From assembly GCA_019057475.1 (NCBI GenBank), contig DXJO01000020.1, positions 113,412-177,411 on the forward strand: DNA of 64,000 nt, written 5' to 3'. The notes under the pieces are model-generated. The model had not been told where the DNA came from, ran no database searches, and saw nothing but the letters and a program-made list of their open reading frames with translations. This document shows, piece by piece, positions 5,637-60,613 of this stretch; positions within the stretch are counted from its first letter, which is position 1; each line of letters begins with the position of its first letter. The stretch comes from Candidatus Thorarchaeota archaeon (GTDB lineage: Archaea > Asgardarchaeota > Thorarchaeia > Thorarchaeales > Thorarchaeaceae). Position numbers and translations under genes: made by a program.

Positions 5637-5990
5637 GTGGCGATTTATCTGCTTACAGTAATCTATTCCGCGCTGAGAATAATACTGCATAATGAATCGG
5701 AACGGACTGGATACTCGGTAGTCCTCCTTAGGAAGCAGAGAATTCTCCTGTCGTTGGCAACCATTCCTGCATGGACAATTTACTATGTCTACACAGTCAT
5801 GACGTTCATAGTAATCTATTCAGACCCTCCAGATTTTTCAGGATTTCCACCATGGCCAGTTCCGTTCTACATTGCTGGCTTGGCCTGGCTTGTATTCGAT
5901 GTGTTGTGGCAGTTCCGGAAGCTTCAGCACGAGATAATTCGAGGTCCTATTATAGACGGCACCGCCGATTCATTTCAGAATCGTTGGTAG
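5637..5990 (+). CDS. Small membrane protein, paralog 1 of tandem pair
   Basis: About 3 hydrophobic segments; clear similarity to 6075-6413 (RILLSL..IPA, YIA.LAWLVFDVL). Confidence 0.55.
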   Translation: MAIYLLTVIYSALRIILHNESERTGYSVVLLRKQRILLSLATIPAWTIYYVYTVMTFIVIYSDPPDFSGFPPWPVPFYIAGLAWLVFDVLWQFRKLQHEIIRGPIIDGTADSFQNRW

Positions 5991-51415: not shown

Positions 51416-51496
51416 ACATAGAGCCTCCTTATCCTGAAGACGTTGGCCGCTAGACTTCGGTTTGTTATATGACTTATGCAACCTACGTAGTCAACA

Positions 51497-51979
51497 TTAG
51501 AGAACCCAGCCCCAAAAGGTGACTATGAACATGGCTTCGCCCGGGAAGTAAACTAGTGCTCCAAATGGCACTCTAACAACGTTCTTAGGCACATCAACTA
51601 CTGGAATTGTTGACCCGAGATAATCATATGGTTCCTCAGGTCCTCCAAGACGATCTGTCACTAAATCTATTGCATAGTCATTAGTCATCCAGGGTGACCA
51701 TGCAAGAAAACCAAGAATTACTAAAATCAATACAATCTTTGATTTGTGTGACCTCACAAAACTGGTTCCCGACCTTAGATGTGGCTTCTGCGAATAGAGA
51801 ACGAGTACCACACCAAGAGGCATAAAGAGTAGCATGAACCAGCCCAACATAATAAACACAATACCTATCCATAGAAGTCTTCTCCCCCCAAGCCGCACCA
51901 AACCCGGTCTTGATTCAGCTGCCGGAAGGCGACAAACTCTCTTAATCACATTGAATTCATCTAGTTGTTCTATTTCCAT
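51497..51979 (-). CDS. Hypothetical membrane protein
   Basis: Hydrophobic segments; coupled to upstream HTH gene. Confidence 0.55.
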   Translation of the reverse strand: MEIEQLDEFNVIKRVCRLPAAESRPGLVRLGGRRLLWIGIVFIMLGWFMLLFMPLGVVLVLYSQKPHLRSGTSFVRSHKSKIVLILVILGFLAWSPWMTNDYAIDLVTDRLGGPEEPYDYLGSTIPVVDVPKNVVRVPFGALVYFPGEAMFIVTFWGWVL

Positions 51980-52437
51980 TGCAATTGCCTCATTATCAAT
52001 TTGAAAAGTTTCTCACCAAGTCGAGTAGGTGCCAAGTCTTTCGGCAGAGGAATCTCCCATTCTTCTGCTAAGTTCCGAAGCACTTCGTCGCAATTTTCCA
52101 TCATGTCACAGCTATCACAATCACCCCTGTGTGAAAACCAAACTTGGACTCCCATCTTATGAGAGTAGGTGATGTATGTTAAGGAATCATGAGCGTGACA
52201 ATAACCCACCGCAAAACCGTATTCTGGGCTCATGTTTTGGAGAACAATGCGGCTCACTTTTGCTGTATGTCTAAGAAGACTCTCAATTCGCTCTTCCGCT
52301 ATTCTCTGCGCTTGACTCACATATGGTCTTGAAACCGCTAATTCCTTGGCGATGTCCGACGGCAGATTATTCTGCCTTCTTCTCAGCCAGATAGTACTCT
52401 GTTGCTTTGTTGGATAGCGAATTCCGATGGACATCAT
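51970..52437 (-). CDS. HTH transcriptional regulator with Cys/His C-terminal domain
   Basis: SDIAKELAVSRPYVSQ HTH; H..DC.SC...C. Confidence 0.75.
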   Translation of the reverse strand: MMSIGIRYPTKQQSTIWLRRRQNNLPSDIAKELAVSRPYVSQAQRIAEERIESLLRHTAKVSRIVLQNMSPEYGFAVGYCHAHDSLTYITYSHKMGVQVWFSHRGDCDSCDMMENCDEVLRNLAEEWEIPLPKDLAPTRLGEKLFKLIMRQLQWK

Positions 52438-52518: not shown

Positions 52519-52720
52519 ATCTAATGAAATTCATTTTAACCTGAAGACGTTGGGCGCTAGACCTGTCTTCGTTATGTGACTTACGACAAGACGAAAGCCG
52601 GCAATACCGCAATCCCTATAAACCAAGAGAAGCGAACGACCGTTCCGTGGGCCAGTGGCTACCCAGGGAGAGTTCATAGACTTCAACTGGATAGAGATGA
52701 AGGGGAGTTTGGGCCAAGCT

Positions 52721-55700
52721 TTAGTAATCCCTGAAGAATATCACTCCCTCTTTCAAAAGGATGTTCTTAACTTCCTCAATGACCCTTTCAATGGTTTCAT
52801 CATCAATACTATACTGCTCAAGCTTTTCTCCAACCTCTCGTTCTATGAGATCAGGGTCTACCCCACCTGCCATCTCTGTCCAACCCTGATAGGTGTGTAT
52901 CCACTGTGTAACTTGAATAGAAACATACTCGCTCTCTTCGGCGACGAAGTTCGCAACTATCACCTGTCCTCCAGCCGCATCCCTTGTTATATCCACTGAT
53001 TCAAATTGTAGTCCTGCAATTTCCTTCTCTTGGATAAGAGAGAGATGGTCTTCAATCTCTTTGTCGACCAACTGTTTCATTATTTTGCTATCAGAGAACC
53101 CTCCTTGATCCAGTACTTCCTCCATTCCTTCCTTCAAGAGTGAAGATAGATGTTCTCTCTCTAGCATCTCAACTTTGGGCACAATAACTATGTGGACCAT
53201 CTTTTGAAGAGTAAGCTCAGATACAAGTCTAAATTCAACTCGATCTTCGAATCTCTTTATCTCAGGACTCCAACCATCAAGGAGGTAGATTCCTGGGTAT
53301 ATTGCTCTCTCCTTTCTCCAACGCATAACGTGTATAGATTCTCTGAACTCCCTAGGCAAGTCTTTGGACTCTGGAATCCGAATATCATACCACATCCATT
53401 GGCCGTCATAAGCACGATAGGAAATCGCACCTGTTTCAAGAAACGCTGCAAGAGCTGGACCGGTGAACTTGATCTGTTCTAGTTCTCTGATCTCTTCAGG
53501 AACCTTATCATCGGAGTAGAAAGTTATTCTCCAACAAGCGCCATGTCTGTATATTGACTCGTTGAATAATGGCTCCGGTTGTCCAGGGTGACCGTCTACA
53601 TCTTGCAGGTATTCAATAACCCTCTTGGTTGCCTTGGAGTGTTTTGTTATGCTCTCAAGATTCTGACTTCTCAGTGGACAAATATGATAATCATGACTGA
53701 TTTTAATTCTCTGAACAACACCTTTACTGAAACTAAGGAATGCTTCAGCCGTAGGTGGAAGTGATACTGATTCAATCTTGAAAGGGTCACTCCTAAGGAC
53801 GAAAGGTCGTAGGATTTTCACATCCTCATCAAATTCGATATCATCAAACCTGTTCCACACATAGTGGTTTTCATCTATGACAACTGGCTCGCATGAAAAA
53901 TCAGGCCGTCGTAAGATCTCAAGTACATCCACAGTTCTTTTGATTAGTAACTGTCCAATCTCATCCTCACTCCCATGATTTAGTAATGAAATCCTGAACA
54001 TTTGCGCTTCATGGTCTAAGTACACATGACACTTAACAGATATACAATCTCGGAACACAGCTGAAATGAGACCGAGACCTACTTTGATATAATCTGCAAG
54101 ATTCCTTGGTGGCGCCCTGATATTGTTTCCAGCTACCCCTAGAAGAGTTGAGTCATCTCTCAGAGTCATCGACATGAGGAGTGTGACAGTTTCGCGTCTT
54201 CGTCTGTAATACTCGATTCTCCCCACTGGCAACCAATTCGAAGTCTTTCCATTGTAAACCCAGAGACCTTGAATCCCCCTTTGAGTGGCAACCATAATGT
54301 CTATTCCCTGTTCAGGGTCCACTCGTTCTGACAATTCCCTGAGTAAAGTCAGATCGCTTGTTCCCCAGAAGGGTTTGTTTCTGCAGAATCCTTTCAAAAC
54401 ATCAAGAATCAAACCCTCTTTCCCAGAGGGACGTCTAAGGTAAATCATACTCATTTCATGACTGCCTAGATTTGTCTGAAAGGTCAAAAAGAGCTGCTGT
54501 GGACTATCACTATTATTCCTCTCTACAAAACATGCTCGACCAAAGAGAACATCACTTACTTGCTCTCCTCTCAGGATTTTCTTCAGACCTTTAGCTCTCT
54601 CTCTTAACCGATCGATAAGTTTTGTTCTATGGAGAAACGACTCTCCAGTATTATGTTGAGAGTGGTATTCTGGACTGAAGCCCACACCTATCAACTGAAA
54701 GGGTACGAGATAGTTCCAGAGCTTTTCTATCAGACTTCTAGGTGAATCGAGAGTTCCTGATTCATAGAGTGATATCAGGAGAAGAAGGAAGAGATGGTTG
54801 CCAACTATTAGTAACAGGTCTGGGTCTTTAGCAAGAAGTTTCTTCAGTTCTATCTTCTGATTCTCTAAGAGGCCATCTGAAATCCATGAACGTTGTTTCT
54901 TCAAGGCCATCCAAATTTCCTTACTCAAATCATGAGTTTCGAGGAATACACGGATTGTTCTTAGAACGTTAAACACATCACTCTGCAAATACCCATCAAC
55001 TAATTTCCCATCAACAAGTCTGTCCAGAGATTCAAGAAACTCTTTCCATTCTTTTTTATCACCATGTCGTTTCGCAATTGTTTTAGCTATGCGTCTTATC
55101 CCACTAAGCTCTTTTCTAACCAGAGTCAATCTATTGGAACCGTAAAATTTCAGTAGACCAATATGTGGTGGTCGTGTGGTTTTCCTTGGAGGGGTTCTGT
55201 GCAAACGAGTTACCCTGTACTCTCTTGTATGGTTTATCATTTCCAACGGTTCAAGCTTTTTCACTCGACCATCTGCATCAACAGAGGTCTGATGCTGATA
55301 TGGCTCGAAGACAACCCTCGAAAGGAGTGACGGTGGATTAGAACTAACACCGGAGGGTTCTTTCTTCTGAATCAAGAATTGGCTCTCTTCTTCGGAATCT
55401 GCCTTCTGATAGAATCTGCTGAGATGTGGAACCAGCTCAAGCACATCATTATTATCATCCTCACAATAGTTTCTAAGATAGCCCTTTCTTATGGAAGAAT
55501 AATTGGACCTAAGATAGAACACTTGTTGCTTGTCTATATTCTTCTCCCGATTATTATCAGGTCTAAACTTTTCTCCCCATTGGTACAATGGTGTAATCAA
55601 AACAGGGTCAATGCTGAAATCATTCTTTCTCTCAGTCACAACCCATCTGACATCATCATCTACAGGAACATAGGATCCATATCTCCTCGGAGCCATAGGC

Positions 55701-58120
55701 AAGTTGTAGACAATCTCATTAATTACCTGCATCCATGGACTGCTTGGATAAAAGGGGGCGACACATCGAGTATCATACTTCTGACTCGTCTGACTCAGCG
55801 GTACAGGTCTATCGAACCAGAGTACTGTTAAACGACGAGGCATCTTCTCGATAAACCAAAGTAAAAACTCATCAAGAAAAGATTTCTTTTGTTTTGAGGT
55901 ACTTCTTCTAACTTTATCCAAACCTGTAACAACAATGAATGGTCTTCTCTTATTCCTGAGGCTCACACTCAGTTCTCTGCCAATAGTTTCAAGAGTATCC
56001 CTTTCATTTACATATGATGAAAGAGGTTCTGACATATCAACGAAGGTTATCTTCTTCCTCAATAGCCTCCGAATGCTTTTCGAATGAAGACTGGCTCGGA
56101 GGTTTTGTTCTCTCAAGCCAGGACTCTTGAATTCGCCTGCAAAGTCAAACCACACAATATCCCTATGCTTTCCTCTCACTCGTTCATGGATATATTTCAG
56201 TCCATGCCAATTGGCAGCTATCTCTGCCGCAGACTGAGAAGGAGATCCTTTCCCTGACACTGTGAGGTACAGAATAAACTCTCTGTCATCATCACGAAAT
56301 CTTGAATACTGGAAAGGATTGAACTCTTGGATGTTAGCAGTTGGAATTGTATTTCTATTCTCACAGTCACTATATACTACAAGTCCCATTCTGAAACTCT
56401 TATCCCCCAATGTAGGATAGAAGAGCTGCCCCTTCGAAAATGCATCATCTTGTGAGTTACTGTACGCTTTGAGAATCAGATTTCTGATGTTACTCCTTAG
56501 GGTTTCCCAATTCTCCTTTAAATCAACAACGAGCACTCCTTTCATCAGCCTTTCAGGAGGACTGACATCACTCCGTACGTATTTCCTATAACTAGAGAGT
56601 ATGACTTTCTCATATGCATCAAGCTGCTTCCTTCCATAGACAGTTGGAGTTGAGTCGATGACATCTTGCCACTCCATATCCTCTGACTTTCTCCTATCCA
56701 TGATTGGTTCAACAACTCTTCTGTTCAGGTCCTTTGACTTTGTAGATGTTGCATACAGGTCAAGTTTGTAGAAACACTTGGTCTTGACTTCGATGAGAAT
56801 ACACGGTTCCCAGATAGTAACTGGACTTGACTCATCAGCTCTCTCCAAATTCTTTCTTCGAAAAACGAGAATATCGACCCGTCCTCTGCCATCAGCCACA
56901 GTAACCTCGCAGGTAAACAAGAAATCAGTTTCTTCTGTGACCATTTCGTCACCATGCCTGATTGAGCCAAAAAGTGAAAATGGCTGAACTGAGAAGTTTG
57001 AGTTGGCAATGAAATCATGAAAAGCAGAGCCCATCATCCGACTGCTTTCGAGCAGGCTCTTCATTGCATGCTCTGCATCAGCTCGAGTCAGTATCCCATT
57101 CTTAACTAGGGACATCACCTTTTCCACATGAACCCTCCACTCCGGATGAAGGTCCAAGTCACACCGTTCTGTTACATCTGAGAAGAAAGTGTCCAGCTCA
57201 TCCTCACTCACATCTTCAGGGTCGGAGGCATCTACTTCTCTTGGCTCATCATCCATGATTGCTTCTAATTGGTCTGGCTCATTGGCAATTAGTGATTCTG
57301 CTATTGCGTGATCCTCTGTTCTTGCATCCATCAAATGACTTGAAATTTCCCCGGTAATCGATGGAGGTCGACCGTTCACACCACCATACACCGCTCGGAT
57401 CTCATGAACAATTTCTCGAAGCTCTCTTACCCCTTTATGGATGAATCCCTTCTCTCCCCTCTTCCTCTCAGTGTAAACATATTCGAGATAGGGCACGAGT
57501 CGCTCGATGAGACCGTCAAGGTATCGTTTTGCATCCCTTATGGGGACTGAATATTTCATGCATTGTCTAGCAAGCTCGATACCATGACTTCTGATCATAT
57601 CCACGAAATCGAGCTCCGGAGTAGTATGAGTTGGGATATACTTTGGAATCCGAGCACTTCCTGGATAGATTCGTTTCACACTCTTAGCTTTGGTGATTAT
57701 CCGCACTGGTGTTGGGAATGGAAACCCTGATGCTCCAAGGTTTCTGATTCTTGCACCGTAATAGTCAGCGAGGATATTGATGTATTTTCGATCCTCTTTC
57801 CGTCTTCTTCTCTTCTCCTCAACATTCCCGTAAGGAACAGATGTATTCAGTACAATCTTGTTGTGGTTGCGACGGATGTTATTCTCCACACGCTGAAGGT
57901 GCCTTGCGTCTGGTCTTCTCTCCTTTACGGATCTCTGATAGTCTAGGAGGGCATCCTTCAGAATCTTCCTGATTCCCTTTCGACCCTTTCCTCCCCAGTA
58001 GAGGTGTTTTGTAGTTTTTGTTACCCTTCCTCTAGCTAGATATGCCGTTGCTGTTAGACCAGATTGCAGCGCTTTAGTGAGAACCTTCCCAGGGTTTTTT
58101 GGGAAACCTGCGTTTTTCAT
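52721..58120 (-). CDS. Giant multidomain protein: diverged Cas1-like domain + PD-(D/E)xK (Cas4/RecB-like) nuclease + degenerate P-loop domain
   Basis: E109/H165/D171/D174 in Cas1-like contexts; GRVD416...E444VK...QLDAY; SGKGSPSQS and IVVTGLD; 1799 uninterrupted codons. Confidence 0.75.
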   Translation of the reverse strand: MKNAGFPKNPGKVLTKALQSGLTATAYLARGRVTKTTKHLYWGGKGRKGIRKILKDALLDYQRSVKERRPDARHLQRVENNIRRNHNKIVLNTSVPYGNVEEKRRRRKEDRKYINILADYYGARIRNLGASGFPFPTPVRIITKAKSVKRIYPGSARIPKYIPTHTTPELDFVDMIRSHGIELARQCMKYSVPIRDAKRYLDGLIERLVPYLEYVYTERKRGEKGFIHKGVRELREIVHEIRAVYGGVNGRPPSITGEISSHLMDARTEDHAIAESLIANEPDQLEAIMDDEPREVDASDPEDVSEDELDTFFSDVTERCDLDLHPEWRVHVEKVMSLVKNGILTRADAEHAMKSLLESSRMMGSAFHDFIANSNFSVQPFSLFGSIRHGDEMVTEETDFLFTCEVTVADGRGRVDILVFRRKNLERADESSPVTIWEPCILIEVKTKCFYKLDLYATSTKSKDLNRRVVEPIMDRRKSEDMEWQDVIDSTPTVYGRKQLDAYEKVILSSYRKYVRSDVSPPERLMKGVLVVDLKENWETLRSNIRNLILKAYSNSQDDAFSKGQLFYPTLGDKSFRMGLVVYSDCENRNTIPTANIQEFNPFQYSRFRDDDREFILYLTVSGKGSPSQSAAEIAANWHGLKYIHERVRGKHRDIVWFDFAGEFKSPGLREQNLRASLHSKSIRRLLRKKITFVDMSEPLSSYVNERDTLETIGRELSVSLRNKRRPFIVVTGLDKVRRSTSKQKKSFLDEFLLWFIEKMPRRLTVLWFDRPVPLSQTSQKYDTRCVAPFYPSSPWMQVINEIVYNLPMAPRRYGSYVPVDDDVRWVVTERKNDFSIDPVLITPLYQWGEKFRPDNNREKNIDKQQVFYLRSNYSSIRKGYLRNYCEDDNNDVLELVPHLSRFYQKADSEEESQFLIQKKEPSGVSSNPPSLLSRVVFEPYQHQTSVDADGRVKKLEPLEMINHTREYRVTRLHRTPPRKTTRPPHIGLLKFYGSNRLTLVRKELSGIRRIAKTIAKRHGDKKEWKEFLESLDRLVDGKLVDGYLQSDVFNVLRTIRVFLETHDLSKEIWMALKKQRSWISDGLLENQKIELKKLLAKDPDLLLIVGNHLFLLLLISLYESGTLDSPRSLIEKLWNYLVPFQLIGVGFSPEYHSQHNTGESFLHRTKLIDRLRERAKGLKKILRGEQVSDVLFGRACFVERNNSDSPQQLFLTFQTNLGSHEMSMIYLRRPSGKEGLILDVLKGFCRNKPFWGTSDLTLLRELSERVDPEQGIDIMVATQRGIQGLWVYNGKTSNWLPVGRIEYYRRRRETVTLLMSMTLRDDSTLLGVAGNNIRAPPRNLADYIKVGLGLISAVFRDCISVKCHVYLDHEAQMFRISLLNHGSEDEIGQLLIKRTVDVLEILRRPDFSCEPVVIDENHYVWNRFDDIEFDEDVKILRPFVLRSDPFKIESVSLPPTAEAFLSFSKGVVQRIKISHDYHICPLRSQNLESITKHSKATKRVIEYLQDVDGHPGQPEPLFNESIYRHGACWRITFYSDDKVPEEIRELEQIKFTGPALAAFLETGAISYRAYDGQWMWYDIRIPESKDLPREFRESIHVMRWRKERAIYPGIYLLDGWSPEIKRFEDRVEFRLVSELTLQKMVHIVIVPKVEMLEREHLSSLLKEGMEEVLDQGGFSDSKIMKQLVDKEIEDHLSLIQEKEIAGLQFESVDITRDAAGGQVIVANFVAEESEYVSIQVTQWIHTYQGWTEMAGGVDPDLIEREVGEKLEQYSIDDETIERVIEEVKNILLKEGVIFFRDY

Positions 58121-58308
58121 TATAACAATGGTTTTATCATTACCTTATATATATTCATTTTATTGAGTATTGTCCATTATCTATTCTCCCATTTATCGCA
58201 GATAATGGCCGGTATCATAGATTTCCAGCGTTTCCATTTTCTAGTCTTGGTAAATTTAAATATATTATGAGAATATAATATTCTGTGGAATATTGAGAGT
58301 GGTGGCCG

Positions 58309-60456
58309 ATGATTAAGCAACAAAAAGCCCGGCGTCGTCCCCGGGAGCAAACGCAGTCTATGACTGAAGAGCAACATACAATGGATGACAAATTTAAATA
58401 TCCATCATCGGGAACGCCAAAAACGGGGCTAAGATATCTCACCGAGTCATTCACTCTCAATTCAGTAGAACGAATTGTGCAGAAACAAGGGAAAGGAAGA
58501 AAGCCTAAACCTATGTTTGGCACAGTTGATGGCATTCAGAAAGGAATTGAAAAGACCACAGGTCGAAAGGTCAAAGATGTTGATGTTCTTCTTCTTGGAG
58601 AGCGTTTCGCAGTCTATGTCAAACTCGTGAATATGGTCCTTGAGCGGGTCTATGTATCTGATGATAGAGCTGAATCAGTTGGCAGACAATTGTCCGAGCA
58701 TCGAGGAAAGGGATATAGCTTCCTGAAGAATTTGAAGTACCTCAGGTACAGGGACAATGAAGAGATTAAGACCATTTGCTTTGAGAGGATGTATCGAAAC
58801 GCCTTGGAACAGGCAGCAAGAATCATCCTGTCCGACTGGAAACGACGACAGCTAATGACTACTGCTCTGTCTGTTCTATATAGGGATGAAGAACTACTCC
58901 TGAAGCTTCTGAAGAACAAATACATCTCTTCTTTGCTGGTAAAAACAATCCGAAAGGAATGTGAAATAGTCAAGTCCAACGGGAAGAGTTACTACTATGT
59001 AGTTTCAGTCCTGAAGCAGCTTCGCCGCATATTGGATGAGAAGATACTCACAGAACGAGGAGAACCTCCTCGATTCAGGAAGAGTCAGCGAGTGCGAGTA
59101 AAGAAGTTTCTTGGAGAGGACTTAGACTCAATCATGGCTATAGTCCGGCCAACAGTGACTCAATGGTATAGAGATGGGTATCCTTTCTCTGTTCCAAAGA
59201 TGTTCTCGTTCTCAGAGGACTTTTCAGCTGGATCTGAGAGCAATATCGGACAGGGTTACTGGTATAGTGTTGACAGGAGTCCAGATCGCGAGAACGAGAT
59301 ACTGTTCTTTCTTAAGCTTCCTGAACCTCTTAATGGCGTGGAGCACAATGATTCTCCTTATCGCACAAAGACCTTGAGTTTTCGGTTCCTTGATTGGCTT
59401 CCTCGTGCGGCACAAAAGGATTCGAAGAAAGCTAACAGAGCCGAGAGAGATGGACATTACCAACGAGCAAAACAACTTCGATTTCGAGCTGCAAAGTTCA
59501 ATGACATGCATCAACAACTAATGAACACTATCGAATGCCAACACACCGCCTATCAACTCAAGCGACTCAAAGGTAGAAAGAACGTAGACACCGAGAAGAT
59601 CATACGACTGGAAGCCCGATTGACAGAATTGAATAGTTCCAGGAAATGCAAACCTCCACAGCTCGTGCTTCGCGAACACAAAGTCACCCTATATCTTCCG
59701 TTCCTACCACCTACTTACAAGGTAATAGAAACGACTCTTGGCAAGAAGAAGTATCATCGACGAGCAGGTGCTGATAGGGGTCTCCGTGTCCCCATTGCGG
59801 TATCTGTTCAGAAGGATGGCAGATACGTCGATAAACTCATTGAGATGAATGAGCTCCTGAAGAAGCGCATGCGGTTGCATGAGGACACAAAGTGGTTGCA
59901 GTCTGAGATAACAAGAACGCAGAACAATTGGGAAAGGAAGCATCCGGATTCATCCTATCCCTCTCACATCCTCAAGAAGCGACGACATCATGATGCGATA
60001 TGGGGAAGAATACGAAGGATTGATAGAGAGATTGCCCGTCAAGTCGCGTCAAGATTGGTCTGGTTCTGTGAGGAACATGAGGTCAAGACAATTGTCTTCG
60101 AGAATCTGAAGAACTATTCTGCTCCGTCTGGCTTCAAAAACCTCTCTTGGAATCTTACCGCTAACCTCTTTTCAAAAGTGTTTGAAACTGTTCGTTACAT
60201 GCGTCGGAGCATGGGTCATAATTATGGCGGTGTATGGACAGTCAGTCCTGCATGGACATCTCAGACCTGCCATCAGTGTGGTGAGATTGGTATCCGAGTT
60301 GCGAATGAAATCTCAACTTCCGAAATGAAAAGAGGTGAGTTCTTCTACTGCGTAGAGTGTAACGAGCATTTCCATGCTGATATCAATGCTTCACGAAACA
60401 TAATTCATGTTCAGCAAAAGAAAATGTCCAGTGCCGTTCCTGGACGGTCAGCTTGA
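58309..60456 (+). CDS. tnpB: Large TnpB/Cas12f-like RNA-guided RuvC nuclease
   Basis: RuvC-I GAD489RG, RuvC-II FE598NL, TSQTCHQCG...CVEC Zn finger, RuvC-III HAD691INASRNI; start may be 58360 or 58381. Confidence 0.88.
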   Translation: MIKQQKARRRPREQTQSMTEEQHTMDDKFKYPSSGTPKTGLRYLTESFTLNSVERIVQKQGKGRKPKPMFGTVDGIQKGIEKTTGRKVKDVDVLLLGERFAVYVKLVNMVLERVYVSDDRAESVGRQLSEHRGKGYSFLKNLKYLRYRDNEEIKTICFERMYRNALEQAARIILSDWKRRQLMTTALSVLYRDEELLLKLLKNKYISSLLVKTIRKECEIVKSNGKSYYYVVSVLKQLRRILDEKILTERGEPPRFRKSQRVRVKKFLGEDLDSIMAIVRPTVTQWYRDGYPFSVPKMFSFSEDFSAGSESNIGQGYWYSVDRSPDRENEILFFLKLPEPLNGVEHNDSPYRTKTLSFRFLDWLPRAAQKDSKKANRAERDGHYQRAKQLRFRAAKFNDMHQQLMNTIECQHTAYQLKRLKGRKNVDTEKIIRLEARLTELNSSRKCKPPQLVLREHKVTLYLPFLPPTYKVIETTLGKKKYHRRAGADRGLRVPIAVSVQKDGRYVDKLIEMNELLKKRMRLHEDTKWLQSEITRTQNNWERKHPDSSYPSHILKKRRHHDAIWGRIRRIDREIARQVASRLVWFCEEHEVKTIVFENLKNYSAPSGFKNLSWNLTANLFSKVFETVRYMRRSMGHNYGGVWTVSPAWTSQTCHQCGEIGIRVANEISTSEMKRGEFFYCVECNEHFHADINASRNIIHVQQKKMSSAVPGRSA

Positions 60457-60545
60457 CTTTCATGTCAAGATGTTCCATCTAACAATGATCGGTTAGTGGC
60501 TTAGCAGGATGGTTCGGTTCATTCAAAAGAATAAGGTGGCGGGCC
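60425..60545 (+). ncRNA. Putative omega-RNA-like scaffold and guide at tnpB 3' end
   Basis: Hairpins CCGT/ACGG, CTTGAC/GTCAAG, CCATC/GATGG enclosing CTAAC/GTTAG, ending GGTTCA-TTCA. Confidence 0.5.
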
Positions 60546-60613
60546 GGGCGGGATTCGAACCCGCGGCCAACAAGTTAAGAGCCTGTCGCTCTACCGGGCT
60601 GAGCCACCGGCCC
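60537..60613 (-). tRNA. tRNA-Lys(CTT), encoded CCA
   Basis: GGGCCGG/CCGGCCC acceptor; ACAGG-CTCTTAA-CTTGT; GTTCGAATC. Confidence 0.96.

Follow-up and report, generated by a model that had tools for sequence, protein, structure and literature searches.

The locus and its tnpB-like gene

The stretch of DNA analysed here (the window) comprises 64,000 nucleotides (nt) of a Candidatus Thorarchaeota archaeon (GCA_019057475.1, contig DXJO01000020.1, positions 113,412–177,411 of the forward strand), and all coordinates below are those of the window. It carries a tnpB-like gene (P0001) at 58309..60456 on the plus strand, which encodes a protein of 715 amino acids (aa) from an ATG start, contains no internal stops, is matched by Pfam and NCBIfam models and has more than 100 full-length homologues. 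Divergent to it lies a giant gene for a 1,799-aa partner protein, an aCas1 fusion (52721..58120, minus strand). The tnpB-like gene is the right arm of a transposon and the giant aCas1 gene its left arm.

The split RuvC domain and the zinc-ribbon TNB domain, which is inserted ahead of RuvC-III, occupy aa 484–704 (59758..60420, plus strand), as assigned from motif residues, alignment and structure superposition. The catalytic codons are those of D489 (59773–59775), E598 (60100–60102) and D691 (60379–60381), all on the plus strand, in the contexts GADRG, IVFENL and HADINA, respectively. The zinc ribbon is formed by the cysteine pairs C654-x2-C657 (CHQC) and C681-x2-C684 (CVEC). A sequence-only reading of this DNA had described a TnpB/Cas12f-like open reading frame (ORF) with an intact triad and a zinc finger; every residue was found at its claimed position, and all seven residues are invariant in a family alignment of 72 sequences.

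Among the Pfam models, the Cas12f1-like TNB domain (PF07282) was matched at 1e-11 and passed its cut-off, and OrfB_IS605 was matched weakly. The NCBIfam models guided_TnpB (4e-16) and Cas12f2 (8.5e-15) were both hit far under their curated cut-offs, Cas12f2 with 54.5 bits against a cut-off of 450, and no other Cas12 model was among the matches. The nearest solved structures by sequence were Cas12f, TranC and CasPhi, matched in the RuvC/TNB part only.

Residues 1–480 contain 20% Lys and Arg and are mostly helical in the structural model. They are conserved from end to end in more than 100 homologues of 45–95% identity, and invariant positions of the 72-sequence alignment are also scattered across them. 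Because the conservation runs along the whole length, this part is genuine protein and not the product of a mis-called start, and the basic, helical N-terminal part of about 480 aa in the sequence-only reading was borne out.

Predicted structure and enlargement

A model was built by AlphaFold2 (AF2) with the family alignment and reached a predicted local distance difference test score (pLDDT) of 81.5 and a predicted template modelling score of 0.76. When it was compared with the PDB by Foldseek, Cas12f, Cas12p, TnpB, Fanzor2 and other Cas12 proteins were retrieved. With VIA-align, AsCas12f (8dzj) was superposed with a Z of 18.4 and a root-mean-square deviation of 3.9 over 381 of 416 residues (model range 41–706), followed by OsCas12f (Z 18.1), Fanzor2 (Z 14.3), ISDra2 TnpB (8h1j; Z 13.8, 352 of 362 residues aligned) and ISFba1 TnpB (Z 13.6). 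Since whole chains of both Cas12f and TnpB could be superposed, the minimal TnpB/Cas12f core is complete in the model, with a bilobed WED-REC/RuvC-TNB fold. The identity as an intact TnpB/Cas12f-type nuclease and the membership in a mobile element are considered highly probable.

The additional mass was placed from the secondary structure of the model and from the aligned ranges. The enlarged N-terminal half covers aa 44–470 (58438..59718, plus strand; pLDDT mostly >85), and the superposition begins at about residue 41. In the AF2 secondary structure, WED strands lie at aa 44–49, 302–361 and 451–465, a doubled helical REC region of approx. 215 residues at aa 73–289, and a coiled-coil insert, an 80-residue pair of long helices between WED strands, at aa 364–443. 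A basic tail (aa 1–41) and a loop (aa 59–84) are disordered. The extra ∼300 residues beyond the core are thus accounted for by the N-terminal tail, the doubled REC region and the coiled-coil insert. The earlier description as oversized, with the extra mass within the REC/WED half, agrees with this model. That of a compact nuclease does not fit, as the protein has 715 aa compared with 360–530 aa for TnpB and Cas12f.

The Cas1-like partner and the published groups

The 1,799-aa partner is encoded by an uninterrupted ORF and was matched by no Pfam or NCBIfam model. A single-sequence PDB search with its N-terminus gave chance matches only. Residues 1–330 were therefore modelled by AF2 (pLDDT 77) from the N-termini of ten homologues taken from the loci, and the model was compared with 48,161 representative PDB chains without a Foldseek pre-filter. 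The top 11 matches were all Cas1 or casposase catalytic domains (Z 11.7–7.7) and fell on the N-terminal 235 residues, among them A. fulgidus Cas1 with Z 11.7 over 177 residues and the casposase 6opm with Z 9.8; unrelated helical bundles followed with Z ≤7.5. In this model, the N-terminus of the partner folds as a Cas1 catalytic domain. aCas1 itself reportedly comes from work by Makarova et al. in 2020.

The pairing of the giant gene with the tnpB-like gene recurs at loci L003/5, L008, L009, L012, L013, L031, L035, L036 and L042 and at many metagenome loci. Elsewhere, copies occur alone or with no more than a remnant of the giant gene. At some metagenome loci (L086:1269-1924 and L100:525-938), the C-terminus of the aCas1 gene abuts the middle or the end of tnpB, and these are internal deletion derivatives.

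Such aCas1-associated TnpB groups of Asgard archaea have already been published as Cas1H-Asgard-1 and -2 by Altae-Tran et al. 2023 (PMC10691335), where aCas1 is put forward as transposase and a variable stretch 3' of tnpB is described, which runs from a conserved T to GTTCACTCA. The present locus resembles these groups in its Asgard host, in the tnpB gene beside a Cas1-like gene, in the lack of a CRISPR array, in the end repeats of some copies and in the conserved T followed by a variable stretch. It also has the corresponding motif, with the T at 60493 and GTTCATTCA at 60517–60525, but among the flanks compared this motif is otherwise confined to the orthologous loci and a single occurrence at +65. 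No feature contradicts membership, and the family matches the catalogued aCas1-associated Asgard TnpBs in these features. The independent Cas12-like expansion inferred in the sequence-only reading is not supported as an unrecognised lineage, given that the pairing with a Cas1-like gene is already published. Nesting in an already characterised family, which would have overturned that reading, applies only by half: the family has been catalogued computationally, and bench work on it was not found in the searchable literature.

A CRISPR array was not found in the window, which contains only five short two-copy tandem repeats, none of them intergenic at this locus. Likewise, no TnpA-like ORF (Y1 or serine) lies between 52.5 and 60.6 kb. 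An assignment as CRISPR effector (Cas12 including Cas12f) was rejected: there is no array in the window, the curated Cas12 cut-off is missed, and the flanks of about 75 copies are unrelated single-copy DNA.

Homologues and distribution

A search of 5.8 billion proteins yielded 108 relatives, about a hundred of which are 690–730 aa long and 45–95% identical over the full length. The named homologues and contigs all belong to Candidatus Thorarchaeota. Among 1.84 billion cluster representatives, just 23 clusters were found below 1e-30, and past these only generic TnpBs followed from 1e-13 down, matched in the RuvC part alone, which sets the family apart. With aa 44–470 as query, 34 of 76 genomes from a single family were matched, as opposed to none of 225 genomes across 29 other families of the same phylum.

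A distant set of proteins with 730–870 aa shares the architecture: the family profile and P0145 were aligned by hhalign with 99.2% probability over 497 columns, REC and WED motifs included. P0145-related frames of 730–870 codons occur in other Asgard families (G207:C139, G152:C13, G144:C15, G052:C51, G141:C130 and others; L145–L150). These enlarged forms may be the second published Asgard group.

Copies, element ends and insertion sites

The genome of the window contains seven matches to the family. Another complete copy is among them, as are a variant of 766 codons, one copy that contains a stop codon, and several fragments. Up to nine matches per genome were found in relatives, many of them at contig ends or with stops. 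The 766-codon variant is the third copy in the window's genome (G000:C53:7004-9250, L003/L005); it has an insert between approx. residues 259 and 260 of the family alignment and its own aCas1 homologue. A paralogue-bearing unit of 2,264 nt is present with 93% identity in two genomes with different flanks.

The right end of the element is sharp. The nucleotide conservation shared by some 75 non-redundant copies ends without transition at AAT[GC]AACG[GA]. Of 74 copies, 60 continue with T and 13 with C, beyond which the sequences are unrelated.

An insertion could be compared with its empty site for a paralogous solo element (L002) from the same genome as the window. Its site is empty in four genomes of the same genus (G001, G003, G004 and G005) and reads ...GTCTTTGAAAAGG-AT-TAACCATTCTGCAC..., whereas L054, the occupied allele, has right end-T|TAACAATTCTGCAC... 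with 19 of the first 20 flanking nt identical to the empty site. No target duplication of more than 2 ambiguous nt was detected between L002/L054 and the empty sites. The paralogue begins with GTTGCCAAYAGC.. and ends with ..ACAATGAACGRY, and its left end GTTGCCAAYAGCTCCAAGAATC is common to copies at differing sites. A search for a terminal inverted repeat left of the element in the window, by local alignment and Hamming scans, gave nothing beyond chance, and a 17-nt internal inverted motif is present in some copies only. The geometry of the paralogue, with no duplication, asymmetric ends and a guide in the right flank, fits IS200/IS605 TnpB elements and not casposons. The latter make target duplications of 14–15 bp and carry a polymerase.

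In L002 (L002:3660-3692, G000:C42), the 33–35 nt after the right end are inverted relative to L054:3341-3375 and to the empty sites (L152–L155). The inverted segment is bracketed by GGAT...ATCC. It could have arisen by recombination at this short inverted repeat or by repair after cleavage.

In the window, the 3' end of a tRNA-Lys(CTT) gene lies 43 nt beyond the right end (60537..60613, minus strand), and this adjacency recurs in several subfamilies. Other subfamilies, which are 49–74% identical, also adjoin tRNA-Lys(CTT), and the bases after their right end (YNRGTGGCTNAGYMRG) resemble nt 4–20 of tRNA-Lys. Blocks similar to the 5' part of tRNA-Lys flank the element on both sides, with GGGCCAGTGGCTACCCAGG on the left (52650–52672) and TAGTGGCTTAGCAGG after the right end (60494–60509). 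At least four subfamilies have a similar block after the right end, and all of them adjoin a tRNA-Lys(CTT) in opposite orientation (L036, L038, L048, L100, L137, L138). This suggests a preferred insertion point after the GGG of a tRNA-Lys-like sequence. At two of these loci (L036:10215-10320 and L038:770-905), the tRNA-Lys(CTT) by the element appears to be split by one or two inserts, probably archaeal introns; ARAGORN calls neither.

The corresponding locus of close relatives is decayed. Only tnpB codons 591–715 are left in L041, which is syntenic from SHMT to YdjM (L041:1000-1500), and only codons 579–715 in G001, which is syntenic on the YdjM side (L040/L136). In G006, a right-end relic of approx. 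60 nt from a different variant lies beside the same tRNA-Lys–YdjM locus (L137:1400-1510). Just left of the element in the window, a 48-nt direct repeat with 83% identity is found at 51429–51476 and 52536–52583, with the copies 1.1 kb apart. The second copy is located between a small ORF (51970–52437) and the stop of the giant gene, and the homology to L041 ends at 52587, right after it.

The 3' scaffold and its flank

At the conserved right end, a scaffold resembling the omega-RNA of TnpB was predicted at 60427..60493 on the plus strand, where it overlaps the stop codon of the tnpB-like gene. The prediction is based on the conservation edge in approx. 75 copies, on covarying stems and on a covariance model (R1, 61 bits). 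The module consists of a first hairpin (HP1, 60427–60444), a second hairpin (HP2, 60452–60469), a single-stranded stretch and the terminus ACAATGAWCGRY, which reads ACAATGATCGG-T in the window and ends at 60493. HP1 has the form (U/C/G)CCAG-N8-CUGG(A/G/C). The outer stem of HP2 is GGACA/UGUCC, and its inner stem is variable.

In an alignment of 33 sequences, 87.9% of the cells on the proposed stems were paired, compared with 26–47% for slid controls. Double-sided changes were counted in 37 cells against 14.7 ± 3 after shuffling, and none of 500 shuffles reached 37. Compensatory types were observed in 7 of 14 pairs, for example GGACA/UGUCC versus GUACA/UGUAC, GCUCU/..GAGC and AGACA/UGUCU.

By analogy with TnpB, the 20 nt that follow the terminus, TAGTGGCTTAGCAGGATGGT (60494..60513, plus strand), were predicted as guide. 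They resemble nt 5–20 of tRNA-Lys, and the flanks are unrelated between copies. It is the same position after the terminus that matches the empty site of the paralogue at 19 of 20 positions. A second target with up to two mismatches was found in none of 81 family genomes beyond orthologous loci. Apart from the site itself, the near matches were orthologous loci in G001 with one mismatch and in G114 with three mismatches, the latter beside its own copy; the other matches with three mismatches (30 in all) are about as numerous as those of a reversed-pattern control (38). The intact tRNA-Lys as target of this guide found no support: only about 12 of 20 positions are common, there are mismatches proximal to the putative target-adjacent motif (TAM), and the 5' flank of the tRNA is not YTGNT.

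A second scaffold copy and its match to the promoter

The model R1 was built from 3' modules alone and searched against both strands of the window with filters off. Besides the 3' module, it returned only one other match with E <0.01, and this second copy lies within the 5' end of the same gene. It covers codons 7–27 (58328..58389, plus strand) over the full model length, with 19.7 bits and an E of 4e-4. Its first hairpin (58328–58345), which recurs at codons 7–12, is followed by a second one (58354–58366) and by the terminus ACAATGGATGAC (58378–58389). Across 45 other loci (412 kb), R1 found 44 3' modules and 25 further matches, 24 of which fall on the start of the tnpB ORF in the orientation of the gene. 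The 5' hairpin covaries as well, with CCAG/CTGG replaced by CCGG/CCGG. The disorder of aa 1–41, which cover the 5' module, in the structural model suggests that the conservation there reflects nucleic acid. A weak R1 match on the minus strand (5801–5879, 11.8 bits, E ∼0.1) shows an HP1-like hairpin and a terminus ..UUACUAUGAACG and may be an orphan right-end relic or due to chance.

The 12 nt after the internal terminus, AAATTTAAATAT (58390..58401, plus strand), were predicted as a second guide. They are identical to a site at 58252–58263 upstream of the gene, which is preceded by a TAM-like TTGGT (58247–58251) and lies on the plus strand, 57 nt ahead of the start codon, within TATA-like, A/T-rich sequence taken as the promoter. 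Such a repeat of the bases after the internal terminus was found in 39 of 52 distinct loci. It is 10–16 nt long (median 12), starts exactly at the terminus and has its upstream copy at −38 to −67 from the start codon. The sequence itself varies from locus to locus, e.g. AAATTTATATCCT in L036, AACTATTATAACCT in L056 and AGGTATAATTGTGG in L011, compared with AAATTTAAATAT in the window. For the next 20 nt, used as control, no such match was obtained in any of the 52 loci, and cross-locus comparisons gave 0.4%.

The promoter copies are preceded by CTTGTT, CTTGAT, GTTGTT, CTTGGT and similar sequences, which can be written as YTGNT. The TAM of ISDra2 TnpB is TTGAT, and the flank of the promoter sites resembles it.

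Interpretation and alternatives

Taken together, the locus is best read as an enlarged TnpB-type nuclease of the OMEGA (obligate mobile element-guided activity) kind with a short scaffold, a guide from the flank and a promoter-matching guide in an aCas1 transposon. A probability of approx. 0.68 is assigned to this interpretation. For the RNA roles of the two modules taken on their own, the estimate ranges from about even to likely.

The protein would bind the two-hairpin scaffold of approx. 65 nt, a transcript of the 3' end of the tnpB-like gene that stops at the right end of the element, and the next ∼20 nt of flanking DNA would serve as guide. The complex would then recognise and cut the same site where the element is missing, favouring re-copying or retention of the element by homing as for IS200/IS605 TnpB. 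The 5' scaffold copy would carry a 12-nt guide that addresses the TATA-like promoter of the same gene at the site flanked by TTGGT. A match as short as 12 nt would probably allow binding without cutting, so that the nuclease would throttle its own transcription. A precedent is given by the TldR proteins, TnpB-derived repressors that act on promoters via guides of 9–16 nt (bioRxiv 10.1101/2023.11.30.569447). In the literature searched, whose coverage is incomplete, no paper describing a promoter-directed self guide was found. In its most specific form, the proposal comprises an active nuclease with two mini guide RNAs, a CRISPR interference-like repression of its own gene that limits dosage, and ∼300 extra residues that maybe replace RNA scaffold required by ordinary TnpBs. 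The odds of this full version are judged to be even.

Several observations weigh against the interpretation. Because the single-sequence folding energies of the two modules were not significant (z −0.6 and −1.3) and the scaffold shares the last ten codons with the ORF, where coding constraint also acts, the support for a scaffold acting as RNA is comparative. The promoter match is lacking in 13 of the 52 loci. No single TAM can be derived, as the promoter sites show YTGNT and the empty site AGGAT, and the self sites end with ..CGGT or ..TGAC, which is little different. The predicted 3' guide of this copy is a degenerate tRNA-Lys-like block that differs from the genome's own tRNA-Lys at approx. 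8 of 20 positions. Finally, no empty allele was found for the site of this copy, and the decayed relatives there may indicate that it is no longer mobile.

The main rival explanation is that the modules are DNA signals, i.e. subterminal hairpins for a transposase like those in the left and right ends of IS200/IS605. The promoter identity would then be a by-product of end processing, and the guide of the nuclease would lie elsewhere or be needless. The 3' module is indeed the physical right end of the element, its TGTCCAAnnTTGTCCAA part recurs inverted near the left end in L002, L014, L037 and L042, and the insertion without target duplication resembles that of IS200/IS605 elements with DNA-hairpin ends. 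The unremarkable folding energies point in the same direction. However, the right-end sequence of known TnpB elements has both roles, and the two readings are not mutually exclusive. Located inside the ORF, the 5' module is separated from the promoter site by approx. 135 nt and is remote from the left end of the element, on the other side of the aCas1 gene. Moreover, a DNA-end role leaves unexplained why 10–16 nt track the promoter locus by locus next to a TTGNT-like flank. As a substitute for the guide RNA interpretation it is considered unlikely, though it stands ahead of all other alternatives.

A fixed, host-domesticated gene, e.g. an RNA-guided regulator or guardian of the tRNA-Lys locus, is markedly less probable. 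It would account for the intact active site, for a subfamily that is found beside tRNA-Lys(CTT) in genomes with 74–97% identical proteins, and for the 20 nt after the right end, which are better conserved than the next spacer (L001, L036, L038). Against this, close relatives keep only codons 579–715, codons 591–715 or the relic of ∼60 nt at the locus, which is decay and not purifying selection, and the family is multi-copy with pseudogenes. Since subfamilies of only 49–54% identity occupy the same type of site, a site preference fits better.

About as little weight is given to an adaptive system of type V-like character but with no array, an emerging Cas12, whose Cas1-like partner would acquire spacer-like guides and place them between the scaffold and a repeat-like motif. 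This corresponds to the sequence-only reading and was hinted at by Altae-Tran et al. 2023 (PMC10691335). The motif GTTCAYTCA was found among approx. 75 flanks only in one orthologous group (L001, L040, L041, L108) and once at +65 (L031), although the published hypervariable stretch from T to GTTCACTCA has its counterpart here between the T at 60493 and GTTCATTCA. The variable sequence runs on into unrelated genomic DNA, and that of the paralogue is the pre-existing target DNA of the empty sites. The Cas1 catalytic fold of the partner and the 33-nt segment next to the right end, which is inverted between two paralogue alleles, would suit such a system; yet the window contains no repeats or array, and no enrichment over controls was seen for inverted copies of the terminus further downstream. 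The least probable of all is an intact-looking but functionally dead relic, which is suggested by the decayed copies of relatives at this site and contradicted by the full-length frame with every invariant family residue, by the intact scaffold copies and promoter match and by the uninterrupted 1,799-codon partner gene.

As for the gene itself, it is one more intact member of a family flagged by two computational surveys and ordinary on that count. What the analysis adds is the placement of the enlargement on a structural model, the precise position of the right end, the covarying scaffold of ∼65 nt, its internal copy with the promoter-matching guide, the duplication-free empty sites and the restriction of the GTTCAYTCA motif to few of the flanks. 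The mini-scaffold, the second guide and these empty sites were not found in searchable papers, with partial coverage of the literature. This anatomy makes the family testable, as it provides the right end, a minimal scaffold, the candidate TAM YTGNT, pairs of empty and occupied sites and a second scaffold that tracks the promoter. Should the short scaffold suffice, the family would clearly illustrate how, in nature, a growing protein can take over from guide RNA scaffold on the route from TnpB to Cas12. A functional promoter guide would amount to self-regulation of a nuclease-active TnpB by a truncated guide. The pairing with a Cas1-fold protein, as presumed transposase of an element that leaves no target duplication, is also relevant to the recruitment of Cas1 by mobile elements.

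Comparison with known systems

Casposons (6opm) resemble the element in their presumed transposase with a Cas1 fold (Z 9.8) and in the insertion beside a tRNA gene. They differ in that the empty and occupied sites of the paralogue show no duplication and that the N-terminal beta domain of Cas1 is missing from the aligned range. An assignment to casposons was rejected on the lack of a duplication of more than 2 nt in the paralogue and on the inverted motif of 17 nt, which is internal, confined to some copies and missing at the left side in the window. Fanzor2 (9b0l) has the same core fold (Z 14.3) and is enlarged compared with TnpB as well. Fanzors, however, are eukaryotic or viral and occur in other transposon contexts, and no specific sequence affinity to them was seen.

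The best structural matches are the Cas12f proteins (AsCas12f 8dzj/7wju, OsCas12f 9nzq, CnCas12f 8hr5 and Un1Cas12f1 7c7l/7l48) with Z 15–18 over approx. 380 residues, and Cas12f is also the best sequence match in the RuvC/TNB region. In contrast to Cas12f, the gene is transposon-borne, has no CRISPR array or tracrRNA context and scores below the cut-off of the Cas12f2 model.

The likeness to the TnpBs of IS200/IS605 (ISDra2 8h1j, ISFba1 8iaz) extends from the WED-REC-RuvC-TNB fold (Z 13.6–13.8) to the element itself. The predicted guide RNA gene begins within the 3' end of tnpB and stops at the right end, the flank would be the guide, the paralogue is inserted without target duplication, and the promoter match has a TTGAT-like flank. 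Compared with these TnpBs, the protein is nearly double in size, the common scaffold measures only ∼65 nt and a second, internal copy of it is present. In place of a Y1 or serine TnpA, a giant Cas1-like protein is the partner. With the TldR proteins (bioRxiv 10.1101/2023.11.30.569447), the system shares the TnpB fold and, as predicted here, a natural guide in the range of 9–16 nt with a promoter match next to the TAM. TldRs are nuclease-dead and aimed at host genes, whereas the nuclease described here appears intact and its putative short guide fits its own promoter.

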